Origin: a virus
Taxonomy: Duplodnaviria > Caudoviricetes
Virus record (IMG/VR): IMGVR_UViG_3300048670_001567
Coordinates: 1-64,000 of that record
Direction: 5' to 3' (one strand)
DNA: 64,000 bases
Positions 4,301-43,388 of this stretch are shown in pieces. The notes under the pieces were generated by a model that made no database searches, was not told the origin of the DNA, and saw only the letters and a program-made list of their open reading frames with translations. Every line of letters starts with the position of its first letter. Position 1 is the first letter of the stretch. Made by a program: the position numbers and the translations under genes.

Positions 4301-5188
4301 CTAAATTTTTAATTTGATGTAATCCACAATGCTTTGTGCCATGTCCTGATTGCAATATTTGTCCATGCCAGAAAATCCCGGGCTTGAGTTGGCCTCGCAG
4401 ACCAAGAATCCATTTTTATCAAACAGCAAGTCAACCCCAGCAATTTCCAGACCCAGTGCTGCAGCGGTCTGGGTGGCAATGCGATCTATTTCTTCTGTGA
4501 TTTCGTAAGACTCACCGTGACCACCGTTGCTGATATTTGCACGGAAGTCCCCATCAGCAGCCGTGCGCTTCATTGCAGCCACTGACTTGCCACCGATGAC
4601 CCAGACGCGCAAGTCTGCGCCAACCTGCGAGTCCACAAACTCCTGTATGATAAGAGTTTTCTTCAAAGCAATGGAACTCAACAGATTCATCAGACCCAGG
4701 AAGATCTTCTTGGTTTCACAGAGGTATACGGTTTTTCCTTTGCTGCCGCTGGTGGCTTTGACTACGCAAGGAAAACCAATTTCAGACTGTATCAGATCCA
4801 CATCCACGTCACCGTTAACCAGAATGGTTTTGGGTATGGGGATATGTGCTCGAGTTAGAATCTGACTGGTCCACAACTTGTCTTTGACAATGTGTATGCT
4901 TTCACTGTTGTTGATCACAGGGACCCCAAACTTTTCCAACTGTCTCATCAGTGCCAGGGTAAAATAGTTGGATCCCGCGCCAGTTCTGCTCAGAACCAAA
5001 TTGGGCAGACTGATTTTCTCCCCCCGATATCTGATACTTTTTACTGTGCCGCGGCTGACAATAATATCAAAATATTTGGGCTCATATATTTCTGCTTCGT
5101 AGCCATTCTGAATCAGACATTCTTTCAGTCTGATATTTTCGTAACCAGTAAGTTCAGTAGCGTAGTGTAGTATCCAGACTCGTTTCAT
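4301..5188 (-). CDS. RimK-family ATP-grasp ligase
   Basis: DKLWTSQIL, PKT, GFPCVVK, GSKG, IIQEF, DLRV, FRANISNGG, AGVDLL, EANSSPG. Confidence 0.9.
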   Translation of the reverse strand: MKRVWILHYATELTGYENIRLKECLIQNGYEAEIYEPKYFDIIVSRGTVKSIRYRGEKISLPNLVLSRTGAGSNYFTLALMRQLEKFGVPVINNSESIHIVKDKLWTSQILTRAHIPIPKTILVNGDVDVDLIQSEIGFPCVVKATSGSKGKTVYLCETKKIFLGLMNLLSSIALKKTLIIQEFVDSQVGADLRVWVIGGKSVAAMKRTAADGDFRANISNGGHGESYEITEEIDRIATQTAAALGLEIAGVDLLFDKNGFLVCEANSSPGFSGMDKYCNQDMAQSIVDYIKLKI

Positions 5189-7454: not shown

Positions 7455-7506
7455 TTTGGTTTCTCCTTTAATTAAGCAAGATAAATTTGGACCCTGTTAG
7501 GCGTCC
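7455..7506 (-). promoter_or_regulatory. ROSE-like RNA thermometer (hsp20)
   Basis: UCUU(G)CUU pairs with AAGGAGA; 22 bp identical to the dnaK leader (7461-7482 vs 9407-9428). Confidence 0.7.
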
Positions 7507-9401
7507 TTTTTCACTTCAGTAAATTCAGCATTGACTACTCCATCATCTGAATTTGCTGCAGTGTTGGTTTCGGCAGCAGGTTGTTCTGCTGCACGTGCCG
7601 CTTCATACAACGGCATTGCTGGTTCAAACAATTGACCCACTGCCTCAGTGATCTTGGTGGCATCATCGCCAGCCATGGCAGTTTCCAGTGCCGTAATGGC
7701 TGCATCAATTTTAGTGCGTTGTTCTTCAGTGATCTTGTCACCGTGTTCACTGAGATTCTTGCGAATATCATGCAGTTGTTGTTCGCCACTGTTCTTGGCA
7801 TCAATCAGCTCACGTGCCTGCTTGTCAGCATCGGCATTGGCTTCAGCATCCTGCACCATGCGTTGAATTTCTTCTTCAGTCAATCCACTGTTGGCTTTAA
7901 TGGTGATCTTATTTTCCTTGCCAGTGTTCTTGTCACGGGCTGAAACCTTGAGGATACCGTTGGCATCAATGTCCAGAGTGATTTCAATCTGCGGAGTGCC
8001 ACGTGGTGCTGGTTGAATTCCTTCCAGATTAAATTCGCCCAGACGCTTGTTGTCACGAACAAACTCACGCTCGCCCTGTGCAACCACCACAGTCACAGCA
8101 GGTTGGTTATCGTCTGCGGTGCTGAACACTTGTGTGGCTTTGGTGGGGATAGTGGTGTTTTTCTTGATCAACTTGGTCATAACACCACCCACTGTTTCAA
8201 TGCCCAGGCTCAGTGGAGTAACGTCCAGTAGCAACACATCCTTCTTGTCGCCACTCAGGACTGCGCCCTGAATAGCTGCGCCCACTGCCACTGCTTCGTC
8301 AGGATTGACGTCCTTGCGAGGAGTACGACCAAAGTATTTTTCCACTGCGGCTTGTACCAGAGGCATGCGAGTTTGGCCGCCCACCAGAATAACATCACTG
8401 ATGTCTTCCAGCTTGACACCAGCATCCTTGACTGCGACCTTGCAGGGCTCAATACTGCGATTGATCAGATCCTCCACCATGCTTTCAAACTTGGCACGGG
8501 TGATCTTGACCACCAGGTGCTTGGGACCGGTGGGGTCCATGGCAATATAGGGCTCGTTGACTTCCACCTGAGCACTGCTACTGAGTTCGATCTTGGCGCG
8601 CTCTGCAGCACTCTTGACACGTTGTAGCGCAATGGCATCCTTGGTTAGATCAATACCAGTCTGGCCACGGAATTCTTCACACAGATGATCAATCAGTCGT
8701 TGGTCAAAGTCTTCACCGCCCAGGAATGTATCACCGTTGGTGCTCAGGACTTCAAACTGTTTTTCACCATCAACACTGCTGATTTCAATAATACTGATGT
8801 CAAACGTGCCACCGCCCAGGTCATAGACTGCGATCTTGCGGTCAGCCTTCTCATTCTTGTCCATGCCAAATGCCAATGCAGCAGCAGTGGGTTCATTGAT
8901 AATGCGCTTGACTTCCAGTCCAGCGATGCGGCCAGCATCCTTGGTGGCCTGACGTTGCGCATCATTAAAGTATGCCGGCACAGTGATCACTGCTTCGGTG
9001 ACTTCATAGCCCAGGTAATCTTCGGCAGTCTTCTTCATCTTGCGCAGAACTTCAGCTGAAATCTGCGGTGGGGCTTTGCGGTCGCCACGAATGTTGACCC
9101 AGGCATCGCCATTATCAGCAGCCACGATTTCGTAGGGCATTAGGTCGATGTCTTTTTGTACAGCCTGCTCAGTGAACTTGCGACCAATCAGACGCTTGGA
9201 TGCATACACTGTGTTTTTGGGATTGGTTACTGCTTGTCGCTTGGCTGGTGCACCAACAAGAATTTCGTCGTCGGTGTAAGCAACAATGCTGGGTGTGGTG
9301 CGGGCGCCTTCTGAGTTTTCAATTACTTTGGCTGCGCCGTTTTCCAGGATGGCCACGCACGAATTCGTGGTTCCAAGATCAATGCCGATAATCTTAGACA
9401 T
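7497..9401 (-). CDS. dnaK: Chaperone DnaK (Hsp70)
   Basis: [25 protein letters not shown]; full length. Confidence 0.98.
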
Positions 9402-11913: not shown

Positions 11914-13128
11914 TTAAATTTTTATTCCGATGAAAATGTGATCCACTCTGCTTGATGTCCAGGTGTTGCCGTTGGTGGAACCGTATCCTGCATTCAATAC
12001 TGATCGAACTGCAGAGTTTAGAGAACTGGCATCCCACACTGTTAGCACAACAACATTACCGATTGCCACGCTGTTTAGTGCATTTGCAAGTGCTGTCACT
12101 GCACCAGCATTGCCATACGTGTCATAAGTGGTGATACTGATGGTATCACCATATGGATTCAATATTGCCAGAGTGTGCCCACGACTTCCTGCATTGTATA
12201 TTTCAATGTCGTTGACTTTGATTACTGCATTTTGGTAAGACGGGACGTCGAAAGTTGAAGAATAAACGTAAATTTTATTGCCGCTGACATTGTATTGTGT
12301 GGTTTCTATTGCACTTGTAGTATTAAATGCTTCGTAGAATGTAAATGCCGCCACTGATGGAATCCAGGGACGCCCCGGAGTAAGAAGATTGCCATCAGAT
12401 ATATTATCTATTATGACATTGCCATCAAATTGTGTGGGTAGCAGACTGATATCATATGTGGCCCTGGGGTTACCATCACTCTCGCGTTTGGCAGCAGCCA
12501 AATTTAACTTGGCTTTTTGTCGGGCTTCTTTGTCTGCTAGGCCGCCTGTAGCCGGTGTTATGGTCCACTGTGTTGTGGTTGTTTTATCAACTCTCACCCA
12601 AGTGGCTCCATCATAGATGCGCCAGTCTTGTTCGCCATATGCTGGAAAAGCTCCACTTGTTCCAGCAGTCATTGTATCGTAAGCATCTCCCAAGGTACCA
12701 ACACCATCAGTCAGTGTGGGAGTGTTAGTAAAAGCGTTCCATGTGCCTTTGTATGTTGCAGCAGTTATTATAGTGTTAGACAATGAACCACAAACTGCCG
12801 CGGCTTTGGCCATGTAATTGTCTATTGTGGTATTACCCTTTATAATGCCAATGCTGGTTCCGTATTCATCATACAAGAAGTTGCCTGCTGTTACTGCATA
12901 ATCACCTGTTTGATGACTGGTCAATGTGACAGCAGATCCTATTCCCAACGATGTTACATACAGCTTGTATGAGACATCATTTGTTGCTCCCAAAGCGCCT
13001 GAGTAATTTAAACTCCAAATAGCTGAGTAAGGAGGAACAATCTCAGTATTAGAATGTGGTGGATTGACATTTTTTGTGAGAGTGGTCCCACTTGCTATCG
13101 TCAGTGTTGATATCCCGTTTGCGGCCAT
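11914..13128 (-). CDS. Putative virion or fibre protein with C-terminal ILEI/GG-type lectin-like domain
   Basis: Thr/Gly-rich; RGHTLAIL...TYDTYG...VVVLTVWDAS. Confidence 0.55.
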   Translation of the reverse strand: MAANGISTLTIASGTTLTKNVNPPHSNTEIVPPYSAIWSLNYSGALGATNDVSYKLYVTSLGIGSAVTLTSHQTGDYAVTAGNFLYDEYGTSIGIIKGNTTIDNYMAKAAAVCGSLSNTIITAATYKGTWNAFTNTPTLTDGVGTLGDAYDTMTAGTSGAFPAYGEQDWRIYDGATWVRVDKTTTTQWTITPATGGLADKEARQKAKLNLAAAKRESDGNPRATYDISLLPTQFDGNVIIDNISDGNLLTPGRPWIPSVAAFTFYEAFNTTSAIETTQYNVSGNKIYVYSSTFDVPSYQNAVIKVNDIEIYNAGSRGHTLAILNPYGDTISITTYDTYGNAGAVTALANALNSVAIGNVVVLTVWDASSLNSAVRSVLNAGYGSTNGNTWTSSRVDHIFIGIKI

Positions 13129-13155
13129 TTTTATATCCCCTGACAAGTATTTAAC

Positions 13156-13176
13156 AAAAAACCCGCCGAAGCGGGT
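13156..13176 (-). terminator. Intrinsic terminator with UUCG loop
   Basis: ACCCGC-TTCG-GCGGGT followed by a T-tract. Confidence 0.8.
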
Positions 13177-13183
13177 CTGATGT

Positions 13184-13474
13184 TTAGTCGTCAATCTTCA
13201 ACACATTCAGCAAGTAATGTTCAGTGATTCGTTCCTGAATCATCTGCGGGATGCTCAGATAGGGCCACTCTACTTCAAACGGACAAGTGGCAGAAGTCCA
13301 GGTGCCATGGACAACAAAGTGTCGATATTCTTTGAGATCTGACAGATTGCTGGGATCAAATGCTCGCTTGGTCTGACGATTGATCATGCTGGTTCGGGGT
13401 AGAATACGCTTGTTTTGGCTCATAAACTGCATGGTTAACTCCTGTATTAAAGTAATCTTAGGTGTGTTCAACAA
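13184..13474 (-). CDS. Hypothetical protein (true start probably ~13432)
   Basis: ORF in operon. Confidence 0.6.
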   Translation of the reverse strand: MLNTPKITLIQELTMQFMSQNKRILPRTSMINRQTKRAFDPSNLSDLKEYRHFVVHGTWTSATCPFEVEWPYLSIPQMIQERITEHYLLNVLKIDD

Positions 13475-14138: not shown

Positions 14139-14318
14139 TCAAAATTCGCAAAGATAGGGTGCTTGTTCTACAGCTTCAGCAGATGACTTAAATCCATTGC
14201 CGACAATGACCCAATCTTCACTATCTTCTGAGTCACGCATTTGTACTTGCCAAAGTTTATCAATGTAAGCCACTCGCACAAGAGGAACACCAGCAAACTC
14301 AATGATTTTTTGTTTCAT
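14139..14318 (-). CDS. 59-aa hypothetical protein (MKQKIIEFAG...; not in the ORF track)
   Basis: ATGA overlap with the upstream gene; GGAG RBS supplied by the repeat. Confidence 0.6.
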   Translation of the reverse strand: MKQKIIEFAGVPLVRVAYIDKLWQVQMRDSEDSEDWVIVGNGFKSSAEAVEQAPYLCEF

Positions 14319-14545
14319 TCTTCAACTCCGAAATGTTCTTGTAAATCTCGTCTAATAAACTTCACGGCATTGTCCCAAATATCATTACTACCACCTCGTT
14401 CAGCATCGTCTACAATGCCTAAACATTCCGCCACAATCAACTCGGCGAACTTTGCAGGATTACAACCAGCAGGTGTAATAAACCCAGTCTTGTCAGTATA
14501 ATAAAATCCAGCCTGTTCAGCAAGTTCTCGAATTCGTTCGTTCAC
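14315..14545 (-). CDS. Small phage protein, MNERIRELA...KFAELIV.EC...HFGVEE family
   Basis: Paralog of 14718..14924. Confidence 0.75.
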   Translation of the reverse strand: MNERIRELAEQAGFYYTDKTGFITPAGCNPAKFAELIVAECLGIVDDAERGGSNDIWDNAVKFIRRDLQEHFGVEE

Positions 14546-14721
14546 AATTTATCCTTGGGAATCTGGTTATAGGGCATATTGTGTTTGAAACTTTCTTCTA
14601 TAATATGGGCCAAGTCATCTTCAAATTTTTTGTATCCGGGACTTGCCTTTAGTCGTTGCCAGAATGGATTATTGAGATCATCGCTGAACACTTCCTTGAT
14701 ACTGGTCTTATATGCTTTCAT
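14542..14721 (-). CDS. 59-aa hypothetical protein (MKAYKTSIKE...; not in the ORF track)
   Basis: Overlapping start/stop codons on both sides. Confidence 0.6.
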   Translation of the reverse strand: MKAYKTSIKEVFSDDLNNPFWQRLKASPGYKKFEDDLAHIIEESFKHNMPYNQIPKDKL

Positions 14722-14924
14722 TTTTCTTCAACTCCGAAATGTTTTAACATTGCTCTATGGTCTTGTTCATCGGAAAAGGCATAATCGGCACATTCCCTGA
14801 CAATCAACTGCACAAACTCAGGCAGGTCTGCAACAGCGACCCATTTGCCGCTGCTGTCTGTGGCCACTTGCGCAACCAATTCATCAACAATCTTATTCAT
14901 TACTGGCCTCACAAGATATCTCAC
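14718..14924 (-). CDS. Small phage protein, HFGVEE family
   Basis: EFVQLIVRECA...KHFGVEE; TTGACT-N17-AATAAT promoter at 14933-14961. Confidence 0.7.
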   Translation of the reverse strand: MRYLVRPVMNKIVDELVAQVATDSSGKWVAVADLPEFVQLIVRECADYAFSDEQDHRAMLKHFGVEEK

Positions 14925-14967: not shown

Positions 14968-15990
14968 TCAGGCAATGGCGTTCAACAATGATCCCACCAT
15001 CTCGTTCTGAACCTTCAACACCAGACTGGCGGCTTCATAAACTTTCTGATATTGTTGCAATTTAATGGTTTCATCCACAAAGTTGACACCATACGCCTGC
15101 TGTGCCTGAATCTTCAGCTGATCCACAGTGCTGTTTTCATTCTGGAGTTGGCCGTCAACGCCTGCTGCCTGAGCCCCCACTGACACTTGCATCACAGCAA
15201 AATTCTCCACAAATTCGCCGCCATCAGTCTGAGCCAAAGCCGTAACATCGCCAGCTGGCTTGTAATTCCAGCGACCATTGGTGTCAATCAGATCTTTTCC
15301 GTAACTGTTGTTGATGTTATCGGTGACTTTTTGTCGGGCATCAAAAAATTGTCCCAAAATGGGCGGAATAATGCTACTCATCAGCTTGTTATAACCGCTG
15401 ATGCTGCCGGTCAACATCTGTGCGCGTGATTGCAAGGCAGAAATCTGATTGGCCACCTCATCGCTCATGGGCTGAGATGCCAAACGGGTCAGATCAGCCT
15501 GCACACTTTGCAATTCAATATTGTGGAGGTCCAGACGTTGTTTGATACCCCGTTGAATTTGACCAAATTGCACGGTCAGATTGTTCATACTTTCGGTCAG
15601 TGTGCGGCCTTTGATGTCGAAATCTTTCTGACGAACTGGATTGTCGGGGGTTACCATCAACTCCCGAGTGGAATTCATAAAATTATCATAAGCAGCAGTG
15701 ACACCACTGTTGCTGATGGCTGCATCAATCTGATCCAGCCCTTCTTTTAACGCAGTTGATTCGGCAGATGATTGCTGTGCACGATTCAATTCGGACTCCA
15801 GATATTGGTCCTGTTTCTGACGAATTTCTGTACGCACTCCGGAATTGGAACCCAGTTCATAATTGGTTTCTTCCAGACGATGATAACCGGGGGTATCCGC
15901 ATTGGCAATATTTTTGCTGGTCATGGCCGCCACACGATCGACCATCAGTAGTGCGGATACCGCGGCATTAGTTGCAGATGAAATTGACAT
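14968..15990 (-). CDS. flgK: Flagellar hook-associated protein FlgK-like (compact, 340 aa)
   Basis: N-terminal NIANADTPGYHR; C-terminal GVNFVDE..KLQQYQKVYEAAS.VL axial-protein motifs. Confidence 0.8.
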   Translation of the reverse strand: MSISSATNAAVSALLMVDRVAAMTSKNIANADTPGYHRLEETNYELGSNSGVRTEIRQKQDQYLESELNRAQQSSAESTALKEGLDQIDAAISNSGVTAAYDNFMNSTRELMVTPDNPVRQKDFDIKGRTLTESMNNLTVQFGQIQRGIKQRLDLHNIELQSVQADLTRLASQPMSDEVANQISALQSRAQMLTGSISGYNKLMSSIIPPILGQFFDARQKVTDNINNSYGKDLIDTNGRWNYKPAGDVTALAQTDGGEFVENFAVMQVSVGAQAAGVDGQLQNENSTVDQLKIQAQQAYGVNFVDETIKLQQYQKVYEAASLVLKVQNEMVGSLLNAIA

Positions 15991-16016
15991 AGTGAATACC
16001 CCCTGTTATTAAGTCA

Positions 16017-16838
16017 TTAACGCAACAAGCCTAGTGCATATGCTGGGAATTGGTTGACAATGCCCATTACTTGCACAGACAATTGTTGCTTGGCTTGCAA
16101 CTGTTGCAACTTACTGGTTTCAGCAGCAATGTCAGTATCTTCAATACGTGAAATTGATGCTTCCAGGTTCAACTGGACTGATTTGGCATTTTCCATCTGG
16201 ACCTTCATGGCATTTTGCTGTGCACCAACAATGGCTTGGTTACCAGCAACTGTTCCCACAGCAGTGCCAATGGCTGTCAATGCTGCCTTGGCCTTGGTGG
16301 AATCTGTCAGGTCAATGGTGGCGTCATCAACAGCCAGTGTTGCGGCATCGCTCTTGACTGCGGTCAGGGTGGTGGTCTGACCCGAAGCAATACCACTCTG
16401 AATAACCACATCAGCACCAGTGGCGCCAGTCAGATTCTTACCAAAAATTGTGGCCTTGTTAACTGCGTCGTCCAACTGGGTCTGAAGTTCCTGGAAGGTC
16501 TTCTGCAGTGCGGTGCGCTGATCTGCAGTCAACAAATCTGAACTGGCTTGTGTGGCCAGCTGCTTCATTTGCGTAAGAATACCTTGTTGATTTTGTAAAC
16601 TACTGGCACCCACTTCCAGCATACTCAGACCCGAACTCAGGTTGGAGTTTACTGAATTGTATGATGCGTAGTCAGACTTCAGAGTGGACAAAATACCCAC
16701 AGCAGCAGGATCATCAGCAGCACTGGTAATACGCTTACCGGTGGCAATGCGCTGTGATGATTGCTGAATATCCAGCGTAAGTCGGTTAAGCTGGTTGGCT
16801 AGCTGGCTGGCTAGTGGGTTTGAATTGATTGAAAGCAC
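16017..16838 (-). CDS. fliC: Flagellin, minimal D0-D1 type (273 aa)
   Basis: SINSN, RIATGKRITSAADDPA, MKQLATQAS, SRIEDTDIAAETS, ALGLLR; AGGAG RBS with GTG start. Confidence 0.92.
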   Translation of the reverse strand: MLSINSNPLASQLANQLNRLTLDIQQSSQRIATGKRITSAADDPAAVGILSTLKSDYASYNSVNSNLSSGLSMLEVGASSLQNQQGILTQMKQLATQASSDLLTADQRTALQKTFQELQTQLDDAVNKATIFGKNLTGATGADVVIQSGIASGQTTTLTAVKSDAATLAVDDATIDLTDSTKAKAALTAIGTAVGTVAGNQAIVGAQQNAMKVQMENAKSVQLNLEASISRIEDTDIAAETSKLQQLQAKQQLSVQVMGIVNQFPAYALGLLR

Positions 16839-17175
16839 GGTTAGTCTCCTTTAGGTTAGTGAGTATAAATTGTACCGCACCGATAGCAGGTTCAAAATTC
16901 ACTGTTTGACCAGATAAAGCACTAACAATATCGCGACTGATACCTGAGAAAATGGACAGATAAATCTGTTGCTCCACTGCAGGAATTGAATTGTCCATGT
17001 GTACCACAAACAATTCACAGATCTGTGCTGCTTTGTTTAGTTCCTCTACTCGGAGCACCTTCTTGATCGAAGTGTCTCGCCAAAGAACCATACAACGCAC
17101 TAGCTTTTCAAGAAACTGAATGTTCTGAGACTTGGAGTCCAGTGCGGCAACCATTTGATATTGTTCAATACCCAA
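16786..17175 (-). CDS. Putative FliS-like flagellin chaperone
   Basis: 129-aa helical protein; GIEQYQMV and LNKAAQICELFVVHMD echo FliS motifs; overlaps the flagellin start. Confidence 0.45.
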   Translation of the reverse strand: MGIEQYQMVAALDSKSQNIQFLEKLVRCMVLWRDTSIKKVLRVEELNKAAQICELFVVHMDNSIPAVEQQIYLSIFSGISRDIVSALSGQTVNFEPAIGAVQFILTNLKETNRAFNQFKPTSQPASQPA

Positions 17176-17374
17176 TTTTGACCTCTTCGGTTATTTTAGA
17201 CTCTTGCGACAGAGTCAAGGAAAGTTGCCACACTTTAGCCTTCGTTAATATTTAGCTCAGACAAATAAAAACGCAAATTTTTTTTTGCGTTACTGATGTT
17301 TTGTATCAGTAGAACTATATTAACACCAAACAGATACCAAGTCAACAGGTATTTGGTTTGATTTTTGTCTACAA

Positions 17375-17650
17375 TTGTGTTACACTGTATCTATGTTTGA
17401 TATTTCACAAAAAAATCGATCCTGGGTCATGCGGTTACATAACCTCAATGATGATGAGTTTTGGTCGCAGATCCAACCCGGCGCCATAAATAACATTATT
17501 GAACGTTTGGAAAATGAACTGCGTGACGTGCCTGAAGCAAAGCGCATGAGTTACGACAGCTGGTACTGGAGAGATCAAGAGGCAATGCAAAAGTTTATGA
17601 CTTATTGGCATTTGAAATACTCAACAGGTTCATATGGCTCAGACCTTTGA
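17375..17650 (+). CDS. Hypothetical protein
   Basis: Divergent ORF coupled to def. Confidence 0.6.
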   Translation: MCYTVSMFDISQKNRSWVMRLHNLNDDEFWSQIQPGAINNIIERLENELRDVPEAKRMSYDSWYWRDQEAMQKFMTYWHLKYSTGSYGSDL

Positions 17651-18080
17651 GTTCACCCATCAATTATTATTCCAGGTGGCCGAGCCTGCCACTTTTGACA
17701 ATCCCGAACAAAACCTAATACTAGCCAGAAAATTATTGACCTGTGTGAACCAATATCAGGCACAGGGCATATCTGCACCTGAAGTTGGTGTCAACTGTCG
17801 ACTATTCGTAATCAAGGTTGGCGCTTTGCCCTGCTTTTGCTTTAATCCCGAAATCATAGAAATCAGTCCTGAAAACATTGAGCAGTCAGAAACCTGCTTG
17901 AGTTTTCCTGGGGAAACTGTGACAACACGTCGCTCACGCCATGTAGTGGCCAGATTCCAAAACTATCGGGGACAATGGGTTGAAGCCAGATTCCACGGCG
18001 CGGCCAGTGTGCGCTTTCAGCATGAACTAGACCATTTGCAGGGTCTAGTCATGCATGACAGAGCTGTGGATTTAGTGTAA
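17634..18080 (+). CDS. def: Peptide deformylase
   Basis: GISAPEVG, ETCLS, QHELDHLQG; motifs 1 and 2 are slightly divergent. Confidence 0.88.
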   Translation: MAQTFEFTHQLLFQVAEPATFDNPEQNLILARKLLTCVNQYQAQGISAPEVGVNCRLFVIKVGALPCFCFNPEIIEISPENIEQSETCLSFPGETVTTRRSRHVVARFQNYRGQWVEARFHGAASVRFQHELDHLQGLVMHDRAVDLV

Positions 18081-18502: not shown

Positions 18503-20107
18503 TCAGGGAGTGCCCTGACCACCCAATATGGCGCTGGCAGCTGAACCGGCTTTTATCCCGCCAGTGCCGGGTATGAACTTGCCCTGTTTGAGATTATTTG
18601 CAGCCTCGCCCAGGGGCACACCACTGAAATCCAATGGTGCTATTCCACTGGCCTGCATGAGTGCCCGGTTCTTGCCTTCAGCCAGGCTGGCAGTGATACT
18701 TTCCCCAAACTTGCTGTCAGTATTGGCCATGTTCTTCAACATGTCCGAGATGCCCGACCCTGAGGTGTCTGCTCCAAATTTATGCAAGTTTGTGGCAAAT
18801 CCCATGGCACTGCCCAGACAGGGCTTGGGTGGACTGTCAATATCGATGCCCGCTGTGCCCAATAATGAGGTGGATTTGCCCACAGACGACTTGACCCCAC
18901 TGACAATACTGCTGATGTCATTGCTTTTGGCCAGACCAGCCATGGCACCACCACCACCCACCACCTGCATGAGGTCTGACATTTTGGGTATACCACTGAC
19001 CGCTCCACCATTCATCATATTACTGACATCTCCACTCATTCCACCCATTAAACTGCCCAGACTGGGCGCAGCAGCATTCAATTTGGGCAGTTGTGGCACT
19101 TCCAGACTACCCATCATGTTTTTTGCTGCAGCAGGGCTGGCAAAACTGGCACCCAGGTCTCCAAATTTTTTGCCTATGTCACTGAAATTTCCACCGAATC
19201 CTGTCAGTTTGTCGGGACTGACTACTTTTTTTACATCAGTAAAGTCGGCCAGACTGGTGATGTTACCGCCACCTCCGCCAAAGTATGTTGTGGTGCCGGT
19301 TTCCACAAACGAAGTTGTGGTTCCAGTGTCGTCAGATGTGACTTCCATCTGAGTGGCCACTGTTCGGATAATCGCTGGGTCCTTGATATTGCCCATGACT
19401 TGTTTTATTTTATCGGCATACACAGGATCACTCAGATTGTTGGTGTCTACTCCCGCAGACTTCAGTGCTGCGTTCAGCCCAGTGGCATTGCCCAATTTGT
19501 TGGCGTTGAGTTGGTTAATTAGTCCTGCTGGGCTACCGAAATTGGCCATATCCTTGACATCAAACAATTTGCCACATCCGCCCAGGGCAGCACCTGCGCC
19601 AGACAGTGACCCCAGGCTGCCGGTCAATCCCTGATCTGTCATGGAACTCATGTTGGTGATACCGCTACCAAAGTCTCCAAAATTGGAATTGGATATGAAA
19701 TTTGTAGCATTTTGAACTTCTATGCTGTCATTGATGTGCCCCTGTGCCTGATTCAGGAATGAACCAAATGCTGCATGGTTGCCGGGTGGCATGATTTTAT
19801 TCTGCAAACTGGTCAGACTGGACAGAGTGCTTGCAGCTTCGGGGTGATAGTCGGGATTGGCTATGGGGACTGTGACGCCGTTCACAACAGAATTGCCCAG
19901 AGTGGGCAACTTTGCTCGTTCCAATTTGGCCATGACTGCCTTGACGTCGGGCGCCATGGTCAATGCTTCGCCTCGGGCAATGCCCACCATGGCTGTGATG
20001 GTGCTGGGTGTCAACCCACCACCGGGCGTGGCCAGGCTGAGTTTGAGATTCTCAGCTATGACTGAGCCGGCTTTGGCAGTGACAAGTGTTATATCGTGTT
20101 CAGACAT
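18503..20107 (-). CDS. Gly/Ser-rich putative virion protein
   Basis: 534-aa ORF with low-complexity composition. Confidence 0.55.
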   Translation of the reverse strand: MSEHDITLVTAKAGSVIAENLKLSLATPGGGLTPSTITAMVGIARGEALTMAPDVKAVMAKLERAKLPTLGNSVVNGVTVPIANPDYHPEAASTLSSLTSLQNKIMPPGNHAAFGSFLNQAQGHINDSIEVQNATNFISNSNFGDFGSGITNMSSMTDQGLTGSLGSLSGAGAALGGCGKLFDVKDMANFGSPAGLINQLNANKLGNATGLNAALKSAGVDTNNLSDPVYADKIKQVMGNIKDPAIIRTVATQMEVTSDDTGTTTSFVETGTTTYFGGGGGNITSLADFTDVKKVVSPDKLTGFGGNFSDIGKKFGDLGASFASPAAAKNMMGSLEVPQLPKLNAAAPSLGSLMGGMSGDVSNMMNGGAVSGIPKMSDLMQVVGGGGAMAGLAKSNDISSIVSGVKSSVGKSTSLLGTAGIDIDSPPKPCLGSAMGFATNLHKFGADTSGSGISDMLKNMANTDSKFGESITASLAEGKNRALMQASGIAPLDFSGVPLGEAANNLKQGKFIPGTGGIKAGSAASAILGGQGTP

Positions 20108-21809: not shown

Positions 21810-23927
21810 TTACCTAGTAATTTTTCCTACAATATAGCACAATGGCTCTAGCACTGCGCGATAGACTCGTCCCAGTGTATCTCTACGCCGGCCCTTCATT
21901 TCCAGATAGATGTCGCTGGTTCTATGACGAGCGACGTGCTCTAATGCTGTCTTGACCCACTGATTGGTTTGGCCTGTGCCCTTGGCATAAGCCACCAATG
22001 GCAAGAACAATGTGTGATAGCCACGTTGATAAACATCGGCTTTGGGCAAGTTGGCACCATAACGCAACCATATGGCGTTGCGATATGATCCAAAACCGTA
22101 TTCTTCGTTCATCATGGTACATACAATTTTCTTTCCACCTGATACAAACTTCATTGCCTTACCGGCCGCATCTGTACAAGAATCGGCAATCTTACCGCCT
22201 GTTTTGACAATACCGTTTTCAATTTGATAACCAGCATCAACGAATGTTTTTGCTGTGTTGTTTGCTGTAGTCTGTGCCAAATTGCTTACATAGGTAGTGG
22301 CTTGATTAGATGCTGATACCGCATTGTTATAAATCTGTTTGCTGGTTTCGTAGACCGCTTTTCTTGTTTGATAAACAGTCACAGCATCTTTGATACACTT
22401 GTTTGTGTCAATGTCAGTGGACAAATCAACTTCGAGTCCAACAAATGCAGCCGCTTCTCCACTTATGCCTAAGCGTAAGTGTCCGTCTTTAAATTGTGAT
22501 TGTGCACCTGCTCCTATTTCAAAGTGATCTTCTCCGTAACTGGCACTTGCGCCAGTAGTTTGGCTAACACCACTGAATGTCACAGTACTTTCACCTTCTA
22601 CTCCTACGCAAGTGCCTATGCTCATACCACCTTCAAGTTGGTATCCGTTCATCCCAACTTCAACTACCACTTCTGCTTTGACACCGGATTCAGCATAAAC
22701 ACATCCGTTGGCACTTTGACCAGCTGGCCCGGCATGCATACTAACCTCTCCACCTGCTTCAGCACGAACCGTACAATTTACGCCTGCTGTTGTGTAAACG
22801 TTGTATCCGTCAAGGCCAGCACCTGCGTGTGTTTCGGCTACAGCTTCTACGCTTACCCAAACACGAACATCACAACCCACATATTCATTGCCAACACTGG
22901 CTTCTGCACTGGCTCCTACTCCTGCACTGGCACCTGCGTGTGCTTGGGCACCAGTACTGGTATAACTGGCTCCGGCTCCTGCTTCGCTACTGGCTTTGGC
23001 TTCTGCGGTAGCTGACGCACTAAAACCTCCAGGCAAGTCTGTTTGAAGTGTCACACTTTCAACATCAAGAACTATCCACTTGGCTTCAACAAATTTTCCT
23101 TCTGCTTCTGCTAGATCGGCGGCAGCTTTATTTTCTGCGGCTTTGGCTGAATTAGCACTGGCCTTGGCGGCTACCAGATCTTTAATAGAGCCTTCGATAA
23201 CCATACAGGCTGCTTTAGGGCCACCGGTGTTTTTGCCCGTGACACGCAGGGCTTTTCTACCAGCAGTGATAAACTTGGTAGAGTTATATTCTTTGGTCTG
23301 TCCGCCAATGTCGGCCAACTGTTGACCGTCTATCCAGGCCTGACCTGAATTATCAACTGCGCCTCTAAAGTTATAGTAGGCATCAACTGGAAAGTCAACC
23401 ATCCAAGTGTTGTCAAAAGTTTCACCTGTGCTGGGCCAAACACCAAAGTCATTCAACAGTTTACAGTAATTGCCCTGAGTAGGCTGACGCACTATGTTGA
23501 CTGGATTGTTTTGCCAGTTTGTAGCGCCATTGGTCATCAGGTTCCAGACACGAACCAACTGTGTGTCATCATCAATAATCATAGCACAACTTCTGTTGGT
23601 GTTGCCTTTGTCACTGGCTTTACAACGGATAGTGTGGTTGCCCGCCGTGACCCATACTATTTCACTGAATATTTTTGTAAAGTCGTTGCTTTCGGGAAGT
23701 TCAAACCCGTCAATGATATATCTGGCATAATTGTCAGCAGTATACTTGAAGTTGTAATAACCATCTGCTGGAAAGTACACCGTGGCGGTGACATCAAAAC
23801 ACCACTTGTTATCTTTGACCCATACTCCATTGTCACGCAACCACTGGGGGTATTTGTTGTCTTGATCACCTGTTCGCCATTGCGCTATGGTGGTATTCTT
23901 TAAATTAAAAATCTGATTTACGGCCAC
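21810..23927 (-). CDS. 705-aa multidomain protein: two PA14-like domains, coiled coil, Ala/Gly beta-rich region, C-terminal GGKKIVCT domain
   Basis: Duplicated FP.D.YYNF...DN units; AEAGA-type repeats. Confidence 0.6.
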   Translation of the reverse strand: MAVNQIFNLKNTTIAQWRTGDQDNKYPQWLRDNGVWVKDNKWCFDVTATVYFPADGYYNFKYTADNYARYIIDGFELPESNDFTKIFSEIVWVTAGNHTIRCKASDKGNTNRSCAMIIDDDTQLVRVWNLMTNGATNWQNNPVNIVRQPTQGNYCKLLNDFGVWPSTGETFDNTWMVDFPVDAYYNFRGAVDNSGQAWIDGQQLADIGGQTKEYNSTKFITAGRKALRVTGKNTGGPKAACMVIEGSIKDLVAAKASANSAKAAENKAAADLAEAEGKFVEAKWIVLDVESVTLQTDLPGGFSASATAEAKASSEAGAGASYTSTGAQAHAGASAGVGASAEASVGNEYVGCDVRVWVSVEAVAETHAGAGLDGYNVYTTAGVNCTVRAEAGGEVSMHAGPAGQSANGCVYAESGVKAEVVVEVGMNGYQLEGGMSIGTCVGVEGESTVTFSGVSQTTGASASYGEDHFEIGAGAQSQFKDGHLRLGISGEAAAFVGLEVDLSTDIDTNKCIKDAVTVYQTRKAVYETSKQIYNNAVSASNQATTYVSNLAQTTANNTAKTFVDAGYQIENGIVKTGGKIADSCTDAAGKAMKFVSGGKKIVCTMMNEEYGFGSYRNAIWLRYGANLPKADVYQRGYHTLFLPLVAYAKGTGQTNQWVKTALEHVARHRTSDIYLEMKGRRRDTLGRVYRAVLEPLCYIVGKITR

Positions 23928-32392: not shown

Positions 32393-32659
32393 CTATTTAT
32401 TTAAGATACTGTTACAGACAAATCCAAGGAATGCCGCCAGAATAGCCCCGCCAATTGATACAAATATGCTTATGGTCTGTTTATTCTGGTCGTTGAGCTT
32501 GCCAGTGACCGCGTCTTTGATGTCAACAATATGCGACTCAAGTTTATCCATACGTGACTCAAGATTTTCTAGTTTGGTTTCCAAGTTCTTGTACCTTTCA
32601 GCACAAAGTTCAACGTGGGCTTCTAGATTTTGTTTTTCAATCTCAGTAGTGGTTGACAT
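32393..32659 (-). CDS. Coiled-coil protein with C-terminal TM helix
   Basis: IEKQNLEAHVELCAERY; paralog of 60668..60919. Confidence 0.7.
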   Translation of the reverse strand: MSTTTEIEKQNLEAHVELCAERYKNLETKLENLESRMDKLESHIVDIKDAVTGKLNDQNKQTISIFVSIGGAILAAFLGFVCNSILNK

Positions 32660-32750
32660 AATATCGCTTTCAGTTACAAGCGATGCCTTCAGATGTGCCA
32701 GAGTTGTGCCTTGATATGTGCCTTGATGAATGCCCGAGCATCACAATTAT

Positions 32751-40696: not shown

Positions 40697-41246
40697 GATT
40701 TACCACCACCAGTTGTGCGTAACTCACACTATGCGACCTCTTGAAATAATACCCGTCATCCGCAGGTTTGTCCCAGATGGTTTTGGCAACTTCTGACCAG
40801 GGACGACCAATCAGGTGCCGTTTGGCTGGGCGTATCACAGCCAAAAACATAGCCAGTCTGGGTATACTGTCCACAGGCTCGGGCATCTTGAGCAGTGTTT
40901 CATAATGATTGTTGATGTGCACCAGTTGTTGACATATTTCAGGATCGTAGAGTCGGGCCCAGTCGGGTTCCCGCATCAGCTCAATCAGATGTTCTTCGCT
41001 TCGCACTTGCCGATAGACGTGAACATTCAACAAGTCCAATTTGATGTATCCACGCTGCTCGGCTATCTGATAATCCAGACTCGCACACCCTGAAAAGGGG
41101 TCCACAGGTATCTGTGTGGCATACACTCCGGTATTGTGTTTGACAAGTTTACCATCGCGCAATTGACTGGCAGGGATCACATCCAAAACATCTATCAACT
41201 GTTGTCTGTCAGCCAGATCTATATCAATGTCCGAATTAAATTTCAT
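40671..41246 (-). CDS. Miniature DnaE (Pol III alpha) catalytic-core-like protein
   Basis: DIDID, KHNTGV, KLDLL, AVIRP, YYFKRSHSVSYA. Confidence 0.7.
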   Translation of the reverse strand: MKFNSDIDIDLADRQQLIDVLDVIPASQLRDGKLVKHNTGVYATQIPVDPFSGCASLDYQIAEQRGYIKLDLLNVHVYRQVRSEEHLIELMREPDWARLYDPEICQQLVHINNHYETLLKMPEPVDSIPRLAMFLAVIRPAKRHLIGRPWSEVAKTIWDKPADDGYYFKRSHSVSYAQLVVVNLNLLCEQV

Positions 41247-42699
41247 TTCTATGACAATCCAAGTCCGGTATATAATCCATTAGTCGCAATCCTCTGGAAT
41301 TATCTAGCAAATCATTAAACTCAAAAAACTTTTTCAAAGTATTTGCATTAATTTGATTGGTATTAAATGTTTTAATCAAACCATCAACAAATGTTTCTAA
41401 TAGTTTGGTATTTTTGTAACATTTTAAATCCTGAATTTTAATTAATTCCCCCAAAATCAATTCACTGTCAGGAAAATTAAATGGGGAGAATATGTCATCT
41501 GACGATTCCGCTAATTGACAATGTATTAATCCTGAAGGATAATTATGTTCTAAAAATGACAGTATTTTATATAATGAAGAAATATTATAAATTGACACAG
41601 TTATATTAAACGATAAACTATGTCCGGATTCAACAATCCAATTAATATTATCGCAAATGTTTTTCCAATTTGATGGCCACCTTACATAATAATTTAGTTC
41701 ATCAACTCCATCAACACTTACAATAAAGCATACATTTGAAAATTTGCTAATTTGATCTTTAAATTTCTTAGAAAACTTGTGAGCATTGGTGTTAATCATC
41801 AGTTCAAAATCGGTATTTTCTTGCCCAATACAATGATCTAGAAACCGATAAAACTCAGCCATCGCAGTTGGTTCACCGCCAGCCACATACATTTTAAATA
41901 AATTATCAAAATCCACAAAATCAAAGTCAGTGTAGGTAGGTGTTGGAATTTCTGTTGGTATTAATTTCAGTAATTTATACTCTTGTTCAATCTGGTTGCT
42001 GGACGTTGGTCCACAGGTTCTGCACAGCAAATTGCATACGTTACTAGCACGAACTTCGTAGTAGGCAGGTTTGGTAATTTTAAGCAGATCGTCAATGGAT
42101 TTTAAATTGAGTCTGTTGGCCCATTCAACAGTTTCTTGTTGTCTGGCACTTCGCATCCCCAGTTCCTCAATTCGATAGCAGGCAGAACAATGCTCAGGCA
42201 ACCGGCTGCCTTCAATCATATGTTGTCTGATGTGTTGATATTCGGGATTGTTATGAAAATCCAACCCCCGCAAAGGTGCTACTGGAGTTGCAGAACGGCA
42301 GCAAACAGTGGTATTCCCGTTGTTGACTAGCAATTCAATAAAAGGAAAAATACAAAAACTTGTATTTTGATCCACTAGATTTTCAAAAAAACTAACATCG
42401 GTCATATAGGACTTGTCTAAAAATTCAGCATTTACCTCTTGCCCAACACTGACAGTTACATAAAATGCGTCTGGGTGGTTGTATTGTTCTTTTGGTTGAT
42501 CTAATACAATAATCTTATCAAACTTTTCTGAAATATCAATAAGTTCTGCTCGAGACAAATCAAATAGACTAGTTTGATAAAACCCATCACAAATTTCCTG
42601 ATCAACACTACTTAGAAGTCCCCGATATTGTGTCCCAGATAACTGCTGCGTTTTAATTTCAGTGTCTATGGTATTATTTCCAATACACAAAACTTTCAT
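41236..42699 (-). CDS. Radical SAM protein with extra Cys-rich region
   Basis: CNLLCRTC, GGEP, NTN, VSVDG. Confidence 0.85.
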   Translation of the reverse strand: MKVLCIGNNTIDTEIKTQQLSGTQYRGLLSSVDQEICDGFYQTSLFDLSRAELIDISEKFDKIIVLDQPKEQYNHPDAFYVTVSVGQEVNAEFLDKSYMTDVSFFENLVDQNTSFCIFPFIELLVNNGNTTVCCRSATPVAPLRGLDFHNNPEYQHIRQHMIEGSRLPEHCSACYRIEELGMRSARQQETVEWANRLNLKSIDDLLKITKPAYYEVRASNVCNLLCRTCGPTSSNQIEQEYKLLKLIPTEIPTPTYTDFDFVDFDNLFKMYVAGGEPTAMAEFYRFLDHCIGQENTDFELMINTNAHKFSKKFKDQISKFSNVCFIVSVDGVDELNYYVRWPSNWKNICDNINWIVESGHSLSFNITVSIYNISSLYKILSFLEHNYPSGLIHCQLAESSDDIFSPFNFPDSELILGELIKIQDLKCYKNTKLLETFVDGLIKTFNTNQINANTLKKFFEFNDLLDNSRGLRLMDYIPDLDCHRNEI

Positions 42700-43388
42700 A
42701 AACCTGCCTCTCTCAATATCAATTTGACCCATTCAGTGTCTGCCACATAATCTTTGAACTTACGCTGCCAGAAGTCGGGATCTATCCAGGGCAGAATAAT
42801 GGAGATATTTTCCTCGTTGAGTGTTTCCAGAAACTCCACGCCACTGGCACAATTATAAACAATCCAGGGACTGACACGACCATTGCTGATATGATGGCAA
42901 ATACGATTGGCATTGCCATATCTGAAATAATCGTTGAAATTTGCTAGTGTTTGCACTTCATCTGCATAACTTTGCATCTCCATGAGTGCACGTTCTACTG
43001 CATCCTGAACTGCTTCGCGACGCATATATTGGTGCAGGTATTCCACATAGATGCTTTCTTTACACCAGTGATCTAGCTTTTTGTTTTCCCGAATAACCCA
43101 GTCTATAAATGCGCCAGAATTAACTGCTCGGATAGCAACCAGGTGGCGTCCAAATTTTACAAATGCCGTGTAGTAGGAACTGGCTACAAAATCCTCATAG
43201 CTCTTGAGTTTGGCAGATCCTTGTGTGACTTCGTAAAATCGCAGGTAGGCCCTGAAGCCCAGTTGAACTCCCACCTCTTTTTCCTGCTGCCATCTGCGTT
43301 TGGTTTCGCAAATGTGTGCGGCCAGAGTGCTTTCTCGTCGGAATTCTTTGTGACAATAGATACATTTATATGCTTTTATTTCGCTCAT
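42696..43388 (-). CDS. Hypothetical zinc-finger protein
   Basis: CIYC...HIC. Confidence 0.65.
   Translation of the reverse strand: MSEIKAYKCIYCHKEFRRESTLAAHICETKRRWQQEKEVGVQLGFRAYLRFYEVTQGSAKLKSYEDFVASSYYTAFVKFGRHLVAIRAVNSGAFIDWVIRENKKLDHWCKESIYVEYLHQYMRREAVQDAVERALMEMQSYADEVQTLANFNDYFRYGNANRICHHISNGRVSPWIVYNCASGVEFLETLNEENISIILPWIDPDFWQRKFKDYVADTEWVKLILREAGL

Follow-up and report, generated by a model that had tools for sequence, protein, structure and literature searches.

The function of a phage-encoded flagellin has been shown in one setting only, that of FRphi, a temperate, flagellin-remodelling Enterobacter prophage that swaps the filament subunit of its host (Walker et al., Nat Microbiol 2026, PMC13418256). 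FRphi carries fliC-P together with an RNA-guided repressor, TldR. In lysogens, FliC-P is built into the filaments of the host, which are thereby remodelled, and the authors name it the first known prophage-encoded flagellin. For the 338.7-kb Nitrosospira jumbo phage roc1, two FlaA flagellins, FlaG, FliI and FliJ are given as an annotation list (bioRxiv 10.64898/2026.05.02.722434), and the general jumbo-phage surveys found in the literature contained no discussion of flagellin. Here we describe a flagellar gene module in a 64,000-nucleotide stretch of viral DNA (in the following "the window"; positions 1 to 64,000 of IMG/VR virus record IMGVR_UViG_3300048670_001567), in which an earlier note, made from the sequence alone, had noticed a three-gene flagellar operon in a phage context.

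A flagellar module in an uncultured jumbo phage

Three open reading frames (ORFs) were found exactly where the earlier note had placed them, arranged head to tail in the same direction on the minus strand from 17175 down to 14968, and their proposed identities hold:

16786..17175, minus strand: FliS-fold protein of 129 amino acids (aa), presumed flagellin export chaperone (fold and gene position)
16017..16838, minus strand: flagellin with D0-D1 only, 273 aa (Pfam, NCBIfam and PDB matches, and the tree)
14968..15990, minus strand: compact homologue of FlgK (hook-associated protein 1) with D0 and D1, 340 aa (profiles and fold)

The clade to which the flagellin belongs is distinct, old and quick to evolve; it was found on at least 14 viral contigs and is spread among uncultured, apparently lytic jumbo phages.

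FRphi is the closest known case. In both, a phage-borne flagellin is strongly diverged from host or bacterial flagellins, and that of FRphi replaces the host subunit via the export and assembly machinery of the host. FRphi is described as a temperate siphovirus that acts in the lysogen, whereas the replication genes found here resemble those of lytic jumbo myophages and no tyrosine integrase was found in the 94.5-kb record from which the window is taken (G000) or in two near-complete relatives (G001, G002). A Cas12f1-like/TnpB zinc-ribbon (TldR-like) domain was likewise not found in the 94.5-kb record, itself a genome fragment. The present phages also have a FliS-fold chaperone of their own together with a compact FlgK or FlaG, whereas the term "FliS" occurs 0 times in PMC13418256, and, unlike the FRphi protein as described there, the present flagellin lacks outer domains. 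The likeness to roc1, drawn from its annotation list alone, is that of a jumbo-phage flagellin accompanied by FlaG. Unlike the present module, that list has the export-apparatus proteins FliI and FliJ (not sought here) and mentions neither FlgK nor a FliS-like chaperone.

Compared with the late operons of bacteria (fliC-flaG-fliD-fliS; flgK-flgL with FlgN), the module draws on the same families, combines a substrate with its cognate chaperone and keeps the axial-protein motifs. It differs in its order (fliS-like, fliC, flgK), in having no fliD, flgL or flgN, in a chaperone that is invisible to the FliS profile, in the length of its FlgK (see below) and in being phage-borne.

Identification of the flagellin

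The 273-aa protein matched both Pfam flagellin domains: Flagellin_N (PF00669) at residues 4-136 with 76.1 bits (cut-off 26.6; E = 3.5e-21), and Flagellin_C (PF00700) at residues 187-272 with 48.1 bits (cut-off 23; E = 1.5e-12). Among NCBIfam models, the best flagellin model scored 128 bits and the FlgL model TIGR02550 scored 78 bits, both under their equivalog cut-offs. When a profile of the family was compared with the PDB, 60 of the 60 best sequence matches were filament flagellins, with E-values down to 7e-49, and these included end-to-end alignments to filament subunits of 270-282 aa, such as Caulobacter FljK/L/M/N. Because both Pfam domains pass, the PDB matches are to flagellins only and flagellin models outscore FlgL, sequence comparison identifies the protein as a predicted filament flagellin rather than the junction paralogue FlgL. 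Its closest neighbours in the phylogenetic tree are flagellins of multi-flagellin loci.

The D0 and D1 polymerisation regions are complete and conserved. It had been remarked in the earlier note that the flagellin lacks the variable outer domains; this is true, but it does not set the protein apart, as many bacterial filaments are built of flagellins of 270-282 aa and those of Caulobacter have ~273 aa.

A compact FlgK

The 340-aa protein matched TIGR02492 (flgK_ends) with E = 4.6e-30 and 105.3 bits, under the equivalog cut-off of 170.75, in two stretches located at its ends. Flg_bbr_C was found just above its cut-off (23.6 bits; cut-off 23), while FlgK_D1 (24.6 bits; cut-off 28.6) and Flg_bb_rod (19.9 bits; cut-off 20.7) remained under theirs. 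The N- and C-terminal axial-protein motifs NIANA..G..R and GV..ExxxL..Y.A are invariant among the FlgK relatives. An AlphaFold2 (AF2) model with a predicted local distance difference test (pLDDT) score of 88 was nearly all helical, with only residues 39-58 (a hairpin) and 231-257 (a short loop) as exceptions. In a Foldseek search with this model, the first 8 ranks went to Salmonella FlgK (E = 3.6e-10 to 5e-3, probability 1.00), with structures of the hook-filament junction complex among them, and the best of these matches had template modelling scores of 0.71-0.78 on the query. The outer beta-rich domains D2/D3, which are inserted in D1, are not present in the model.

All eight aligned relatives (8/8) are exactly 340 aa long. 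For comparison, FlgK was found above cut-off in 303 of 401 sampled Pseudomonadota genomes, and the best 150 of these 303 had open frames of 450-915 aa. The phage protein is thus ~110 aa shorter than the shortest bacterial FlgK listed among these 150, and the FlgK that the earlier note described as compact is indeed unusually short. A profile of the phage FlgK, searched against the same 401 genomes, gave one weak partial match only. We conclude that the 340-aa protein is a real, conserved and compact FlgK without D2/D3.

A chaperone candidate with the FliS fold

No Pfam, NCBIfam or PHROG matches were obtained for the 129-aa ORF. With the FliS profile (PF02561), the window protein gave no match at E-values up to 1, and 2 of 39 relatives matched with E = 0.038 or worse. 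Pfam scans of family members (11 and 39) and PDB profile searches returned noise only and no FliS chain. The AF2 model (pLDDT 81) consists of an N-terminal cap helix and an antiparallel four-helix bundle, with helices at 4-10, 14-33, 39-58, 66-87 and 95-116. In a VIA-align comparison, ranks 1-9 were all FliS (Z 16.1-12.6, 97-113 residues aligned), with unrelated bundles at 11.7 or less; ranks 1-6 in Foldseek were also FliS, but with weak E-values of 0.017-0.19.

The family to which the protein belongs is conserved, has a length of 100-120 aa and adjoins the flagellin, lying immediately upstream of it in nearly all related loci; this adjacency was observed in the window and 10 related loci. It comprises 85 cluster representatives (50% identity) among 1.8 billion proteins. 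The TTG start is backed by a conserved N-terminus, in which Y6 is nearly invariant. The earlier proposal of a FliS-like chaperone is therefore retained in part: the four-helix fold, whose nine best matches are FliS, and the position of the gene agree with it, but there is no sequence match. The protein is presumed to be a flagellin export chaperone on the strength of its modelled fold, and we use the label "FliS-like" because of fold and gene position, not sequence.

Distribution and phylogeny of the phage flagellins

In a metagenome protein collection, 209 relatives of the flagellin were found, mostly of 271-275 aa and 45-88% identical. Two single-sequence pattern scans of viral contigs gave nothing; an alignment-based scan of viral contigs in IMG/VR yielded 22 contigs, of which 14 have flagellins 48-61% identical to that of the window. 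Two of these 14 are genomes of 318 kb (91% complete) and 328 kb (100% complete), the latter with terminal repeats.

The earlier note had predicted a long-branch phage clade apart from the bacterial flagellins, and such a clade was recovered. Maximum-likelihood analysis of 109 flagellins placed the window protein in one clade with those of 11 viral contigs and 9 metagenome proteins, with a Shimodaira-Hasegawa-like approximate likelihood ratio test (SH-aLRT) value of 98. Outside this clade fell 79 of the 80 sampled bacterial flagellins, and the 80th (L044) was its long-branch sister. L044 is located on a 4.2-kb contig of a Gammaproteobacteria metagenome-assembled genome from a lake, which encodes three flagellins of ~280 aa and FlaG, and the sister sequence is a divergent, oppositely oriented paralogue. 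As such a paralogue within an ordinary three-flagellin and FlaG locus, it gives no indication of a donor of the phage clade. Across 185,579 species, represented by one genome each, the closest flagellins among the matches listed were 29-36% identical and came mostly from Sphingomonadales. Other viral flagellins (L016-L023) branch among the bacterial ones and, from their sequences, look like separate captures.

Three variants of the module were observed. The order FliS-like, flagellin, FlgK is found in the window and in loci L004, L005, L009, L010 and L013, and the 340-aa FlgK directly follows the flagellin in 5 related loci. FlaG takes the third position in L002 and, more weakly, in L012, and the complete genome behind L015 has the order flagellin, FlaG, FliS-like. 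The absence of basal body, hook, flgL and fliD genes, noted earlier for the window, was confirmed by family searches of the whole record: no genes of the rod/hook family, FlgL, FliD or FlaG were found above cut-off in the 94.5 kb besides the module. The same search of the two 91-100% complete relatives revealed nothing beyond their own module genes (FlgK in G001, FlaG in G002). In each phage record searched, Flagellin_N is represented by exactly one gene, which leaves no FlgL; a rod-family C-terminus occurs once at most, and FliD is absent. A weak FliD_C match at 32492-32674 (13 bits) was put down to coiled-coil noise, as the 88-aa ORF that gives it is of the coiled-coil/transmembrane type.

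Contigs of three other samples (L004, L005, L010) have the gene order of the window, which runs from the ribonucleotide reductase (RNR) beta gene through a 105-aa gene and a 534-600-aa gene to FliS-like, flagellin, FlgK and a set of small genes that share the motif HFGVEE. Between the window and these relatives, RNR beta is 80% and a 705-aa protein 87% identical, versus 54% for the flagellin, 31% for FlgK and ~21% for the chaperone. Because the identities of the module lie so far below those of RNR beta and the 705-aa protein, the module evolves much faster than its neighbours or moves between phages by exchange. The flagellin clade crosses phage lineages, since the 705-aa protein, which has a PA14 domain, was not found in the other flagellin-bearing jumbo phages searched (G001-G005). 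Among close relatives, the ratio of nonsynonymous to synonymous substitutions (dN/dS) was 0-0.2 for all three module genes, which are under purifying selection.

The host phage

The source record has 94,535 bases and is 27% complete according to CheckV, which implies a whole genome of several hundred kb. Its DnaB helicase is 50-53% identical to DnaB of the jumbo myophages PA5oct and Atu_ph07, and a second protein of the window also ties it to the PA5oct/Atu_ph07 group, which takes in Rak2-like phages. By these sequence relationships, the record is a fragment of a jumbo phage related to this group. It encodes DnaK, both RNR subunits, DnaB helicase, primase, an exonuclease, further helicases, peptide deformylase and tail-like proteins, and the GC content is flat across the module region. 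A DNA search with the 4.2 kb around the module gave no match in cultured-phage records. Among 50,697 phage records searched with tblastn, there were zero matches to the compact FlgK and just three weak matches to the flagellin (24-31% identity), all in low-quality records.

Proposed role in the infected cell

All flagellar products of the module are late, filament-type substrates of the flagellar type III secretion system (fT3SS), namely flagellin and either FlgK or FlaG, together with a chaperone; nothing is encoded for earlier assembly. In the reading that we prefer, and to which we give an even chance, uncultured jumbo myophages keep these genes as a conserved accessory module whose products are exported, so that host flagella are rebuilt from phage subunits. 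The earlier note had likewise suggested that host export is used to replace or poison the filament, and the gene content fits this proposal. During infection, the phage chaperone would keep the phage flagellin unpolymerised and pass it to the export gate of the host, and the flagellin and FlgK would leave the cell via the host flagellar secretion system. Export is favoured over cytoplasmic use because of the dedicated anti-polymerisation and targeting chaperone. Since only late substrates and a chaperone are encoded, addition onto host-made hook-basal bodies is expected: phage subunits would join hook-basal bodies and filament tips already built by the host, with FlgL and FliD also supplied by the host. 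In an infected cell, the distal part of the flagellum would in this way come to consist of phage-specified subunits. The pay-off would likely be one of two: the infected cell may keep or change its motility through a long latent period, or the changed filament surface may block further phage adsorption. The earlier note had named superinfection exclusion, altered motility and reduced recognition by grazers as possible benefits.

Several points weigh against this rebuilding of host flagella. The main difficulty is the presence of FlgK without FlgL: a phage that brings a foreign flagellin would be expected to carry FlgL, the protein on which flagellin polymerises, rather than FlgK. Host filaments that are already present persist, so that only the distal part or newly made flagella could be remodelled. 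The modelled FliS assignment lacks sequence support, and export, chaperone binding and filament incorporation are deduced from genes and folds. A scan of the sequence preceding the module, made in the window and in 10 loci, gave no convincing sigma-28-type promoter, and the operon thus appears to lack a promoter link of this type to the flagellar regulon of the host. Finally, superinfection exclusion was tested and excluded in the sole studied precedent, FRphi (PMC13418256).

Interference is an unlikely alternative, in which the phage proteins serve as dominant-negative or decoy subunits and not for construction. The truncated FlgK could cap host hooks, or the flagellin and FliS-like pair could block the export gate or titrate FliS, FlgN, FlgM or FliW. 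The host would then no longer assemble filaments or bear the energy cost of doing so, or the regulation of its flagellar genes would be rewired. The presence of FlgK without FlgL keeps such a dominant-negative or regulatory role alive. It also agrees with a FlgK devoid of the outer domains seen in the bacterial FlgKs listed and without close bacterial relatives, with the absence of FlgL and FliD, which means that the phage alone cannot complete junction and cap, and with the far faster divergence of flagellin and FlgK than of RNR beta and the 705-aa protein, as measured against L004/L005. However, the flagellin retains D0 and D1, complete and conserved, as its polymerisation regions and can be aligned over its whole length with filament formers of 270-282 aa, and a poison has no obvious need for a polymerisable full-length subunit, for an anti-polymerisation chaperone, or for FlaG, a filament-length factor found in sister phages.

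Less probable still is a structural use by the phage itself. The flagellin would then make up a virion fibre, a whisker or a tail appendage to which FlgK is the adaptor, or the two would form an intracellular filament, and the FliS-like protein would be an assembly chaperone that guards against polymerisation too early. Neighbouring genes with weak virion-type matches are compatible with this, namely those of the 426-aa tail-like protein (11914-13194), a 578-aa "virion structural" protein and the 705-aa PA14 protein, as are the PAAR-like gene and the 583-600-aa protein just upstream of the module in L004/L005/L010. The flagellin also has its C-terminal region in common with phrog_16088, a PHROG family of unknown function. 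Against this, flagellin, FlgK, FlaG and the FliS-type chaperone are all late fT3SS substrates or their chaperone, FlaG has no obvious virion role, and flagellin normally polymerises only where an export channel ends in a FliD cap. Because cultured relatives of the group carry no homologue (see the tblastn results above), the module is not a core structural part. Its specific form, in which flagellin and FlgK never reach the host flagellum and the phage owns an axial filament (virion fibre or whisker) with an FlgK adaptor and a FliS-fold assembly chaperone, has only a slim chance of being correct; equally, a virion-borne flagellin might dock on host filaments through homotypic polymerisation. 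A phage-owned filament, if true, would mean that flagellar axial proteins have been recruited into a virus structure.

It is highly improbable that the module is an assembly chimera, host contamination or a recently captured, functionless host operon: the record is a metagenomic fragment and 27% complete, but independent assemblies from three other samples (L004, L005, L010) share the gene order, which excludes the chimera raised in the earlier note, the clade is present in the terminally repeated, 100% complete 328-kb genome, and the GC content is flat; with a dN/dS of 0-0.2 and an identity to bacterial flagellins of at most 36% among the matches listed, the module is not the decaying near-copy of a host operon that the note had also considered.

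Operon layout and upstream region

The 129-aa ORF starts with TTG at 17175, six bases after a Shine-Dalgarno-like GAGG, and its end (the last ~17 residues) overlaps the start of the flagellin ORF by 53 nt. The flagellin ORF begins with GTG at 16838, seven bases after a Shine-Dalgarno-like AGGAG, and the FlgK ORF with ATG at 15990, after a Shine-Dalgarno-like AGGGGG. The divergent intergenic region upstream of the operon has a length of 199 bp and contains two candidate features:

17317..17345, minus strand: sigma-70-like promoter candidate, TTGACT-17 nt-TAATAT with an upstream TG (consensus match only)
17176..17315, minus strand: 5' leader predicted to fold into a series of hairpins (-35.9 kcal/mol; z -3.3 versus shuffles)

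One of these hairpins (17270-17291), located after the promoter match and ahead of the first gene, is symmetric, A/T-flanked and terminator-like on both strands; it might serve as an attenuator or represent a small RNA. An Rfam search of the leader returned zero families.

Neighbouring genes

On the other side of the intergenic region, a 91-aa ORF and a peptide deformylase gene (17375-18080, plus strand; Pfam 4.4e-29) are divergent from the flagellar operon. These look like a local insertion or inversion because they are missing from the corresponding position in L004, L005 and L010. Further upstream of the module, a 534-aa Gly/Ser/Ala-rich protein (18503-20107, minus strand) is predicted to be disordered and is conserved in the relatives, where its counterpart has 583-600 aa (L004 7162-8913) and is preceded by a 96-aa PAAR-like gene (Pfam PAAR 5.7e-5, under cut-off). 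The protein may be spike- or tail-associated. It was considered as a cap or junction protein and rejected: Pfam and PHROG were empty, the Atlas model had a pLDDT of 0.42 and no usable structural neighbours were obtained. The 705-aa PA14 protein is encoded at 21810-23927 (minus strand), has weak PHROG matches to "major head protein" and is 87% identical to its copy in L005.

Downstream of the module, at 14315-14545 and 14718-14924 (minus strand), are the genes of small paralogous proteins of ~68-76 aa with the C-terminal motif HFGVEE and without family match, and related phages (also L003, L005, L013) likewise have several such genes following the module. At its C-terminus, the 426-aa tail-like protein (minus strand) bears an ILEI (interleukin-like EMT inducer) domain (Pfam 1.7e-8, above cut-off), which is unusual in a phage protein. 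A full-length DnaK (Hsp70; 7497-9401, minus strand) is 67% identical to enterobacterial and Pseudomonas-phage DnaK, and other huge phages likewise encode this protein. Additional host-like accessory genes are those of a RimK-like "ribosomal protein S6 glutaminyl transferase" homologue (4301-5188, PHROG 3e-29) and a radical-SAM protein (41236-42732, PHROG 2e-17), both on the minus strand.

Implications

New here is the combination of a chaperone family that FliS profiles do not recognise with a stripped-down FlgK or with FlaG, in apparently lytic jumbo phages. The FliS-fold family, with its 85 clusters, widens the definition of a flagellar chaperone, and the 340-aa FlgK represents a natural minimal junction protein of use for structural work on the hook-filament junction. 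If the proteins are exported, motility organelles would have to be counted, like photosystems and nucleotide pools, among the host machinery that is maintained or re-specified by viruses during infection, with consequences for the chemotaxis of infected cells, for the adsorption of flagellotropic phages and for grazing.

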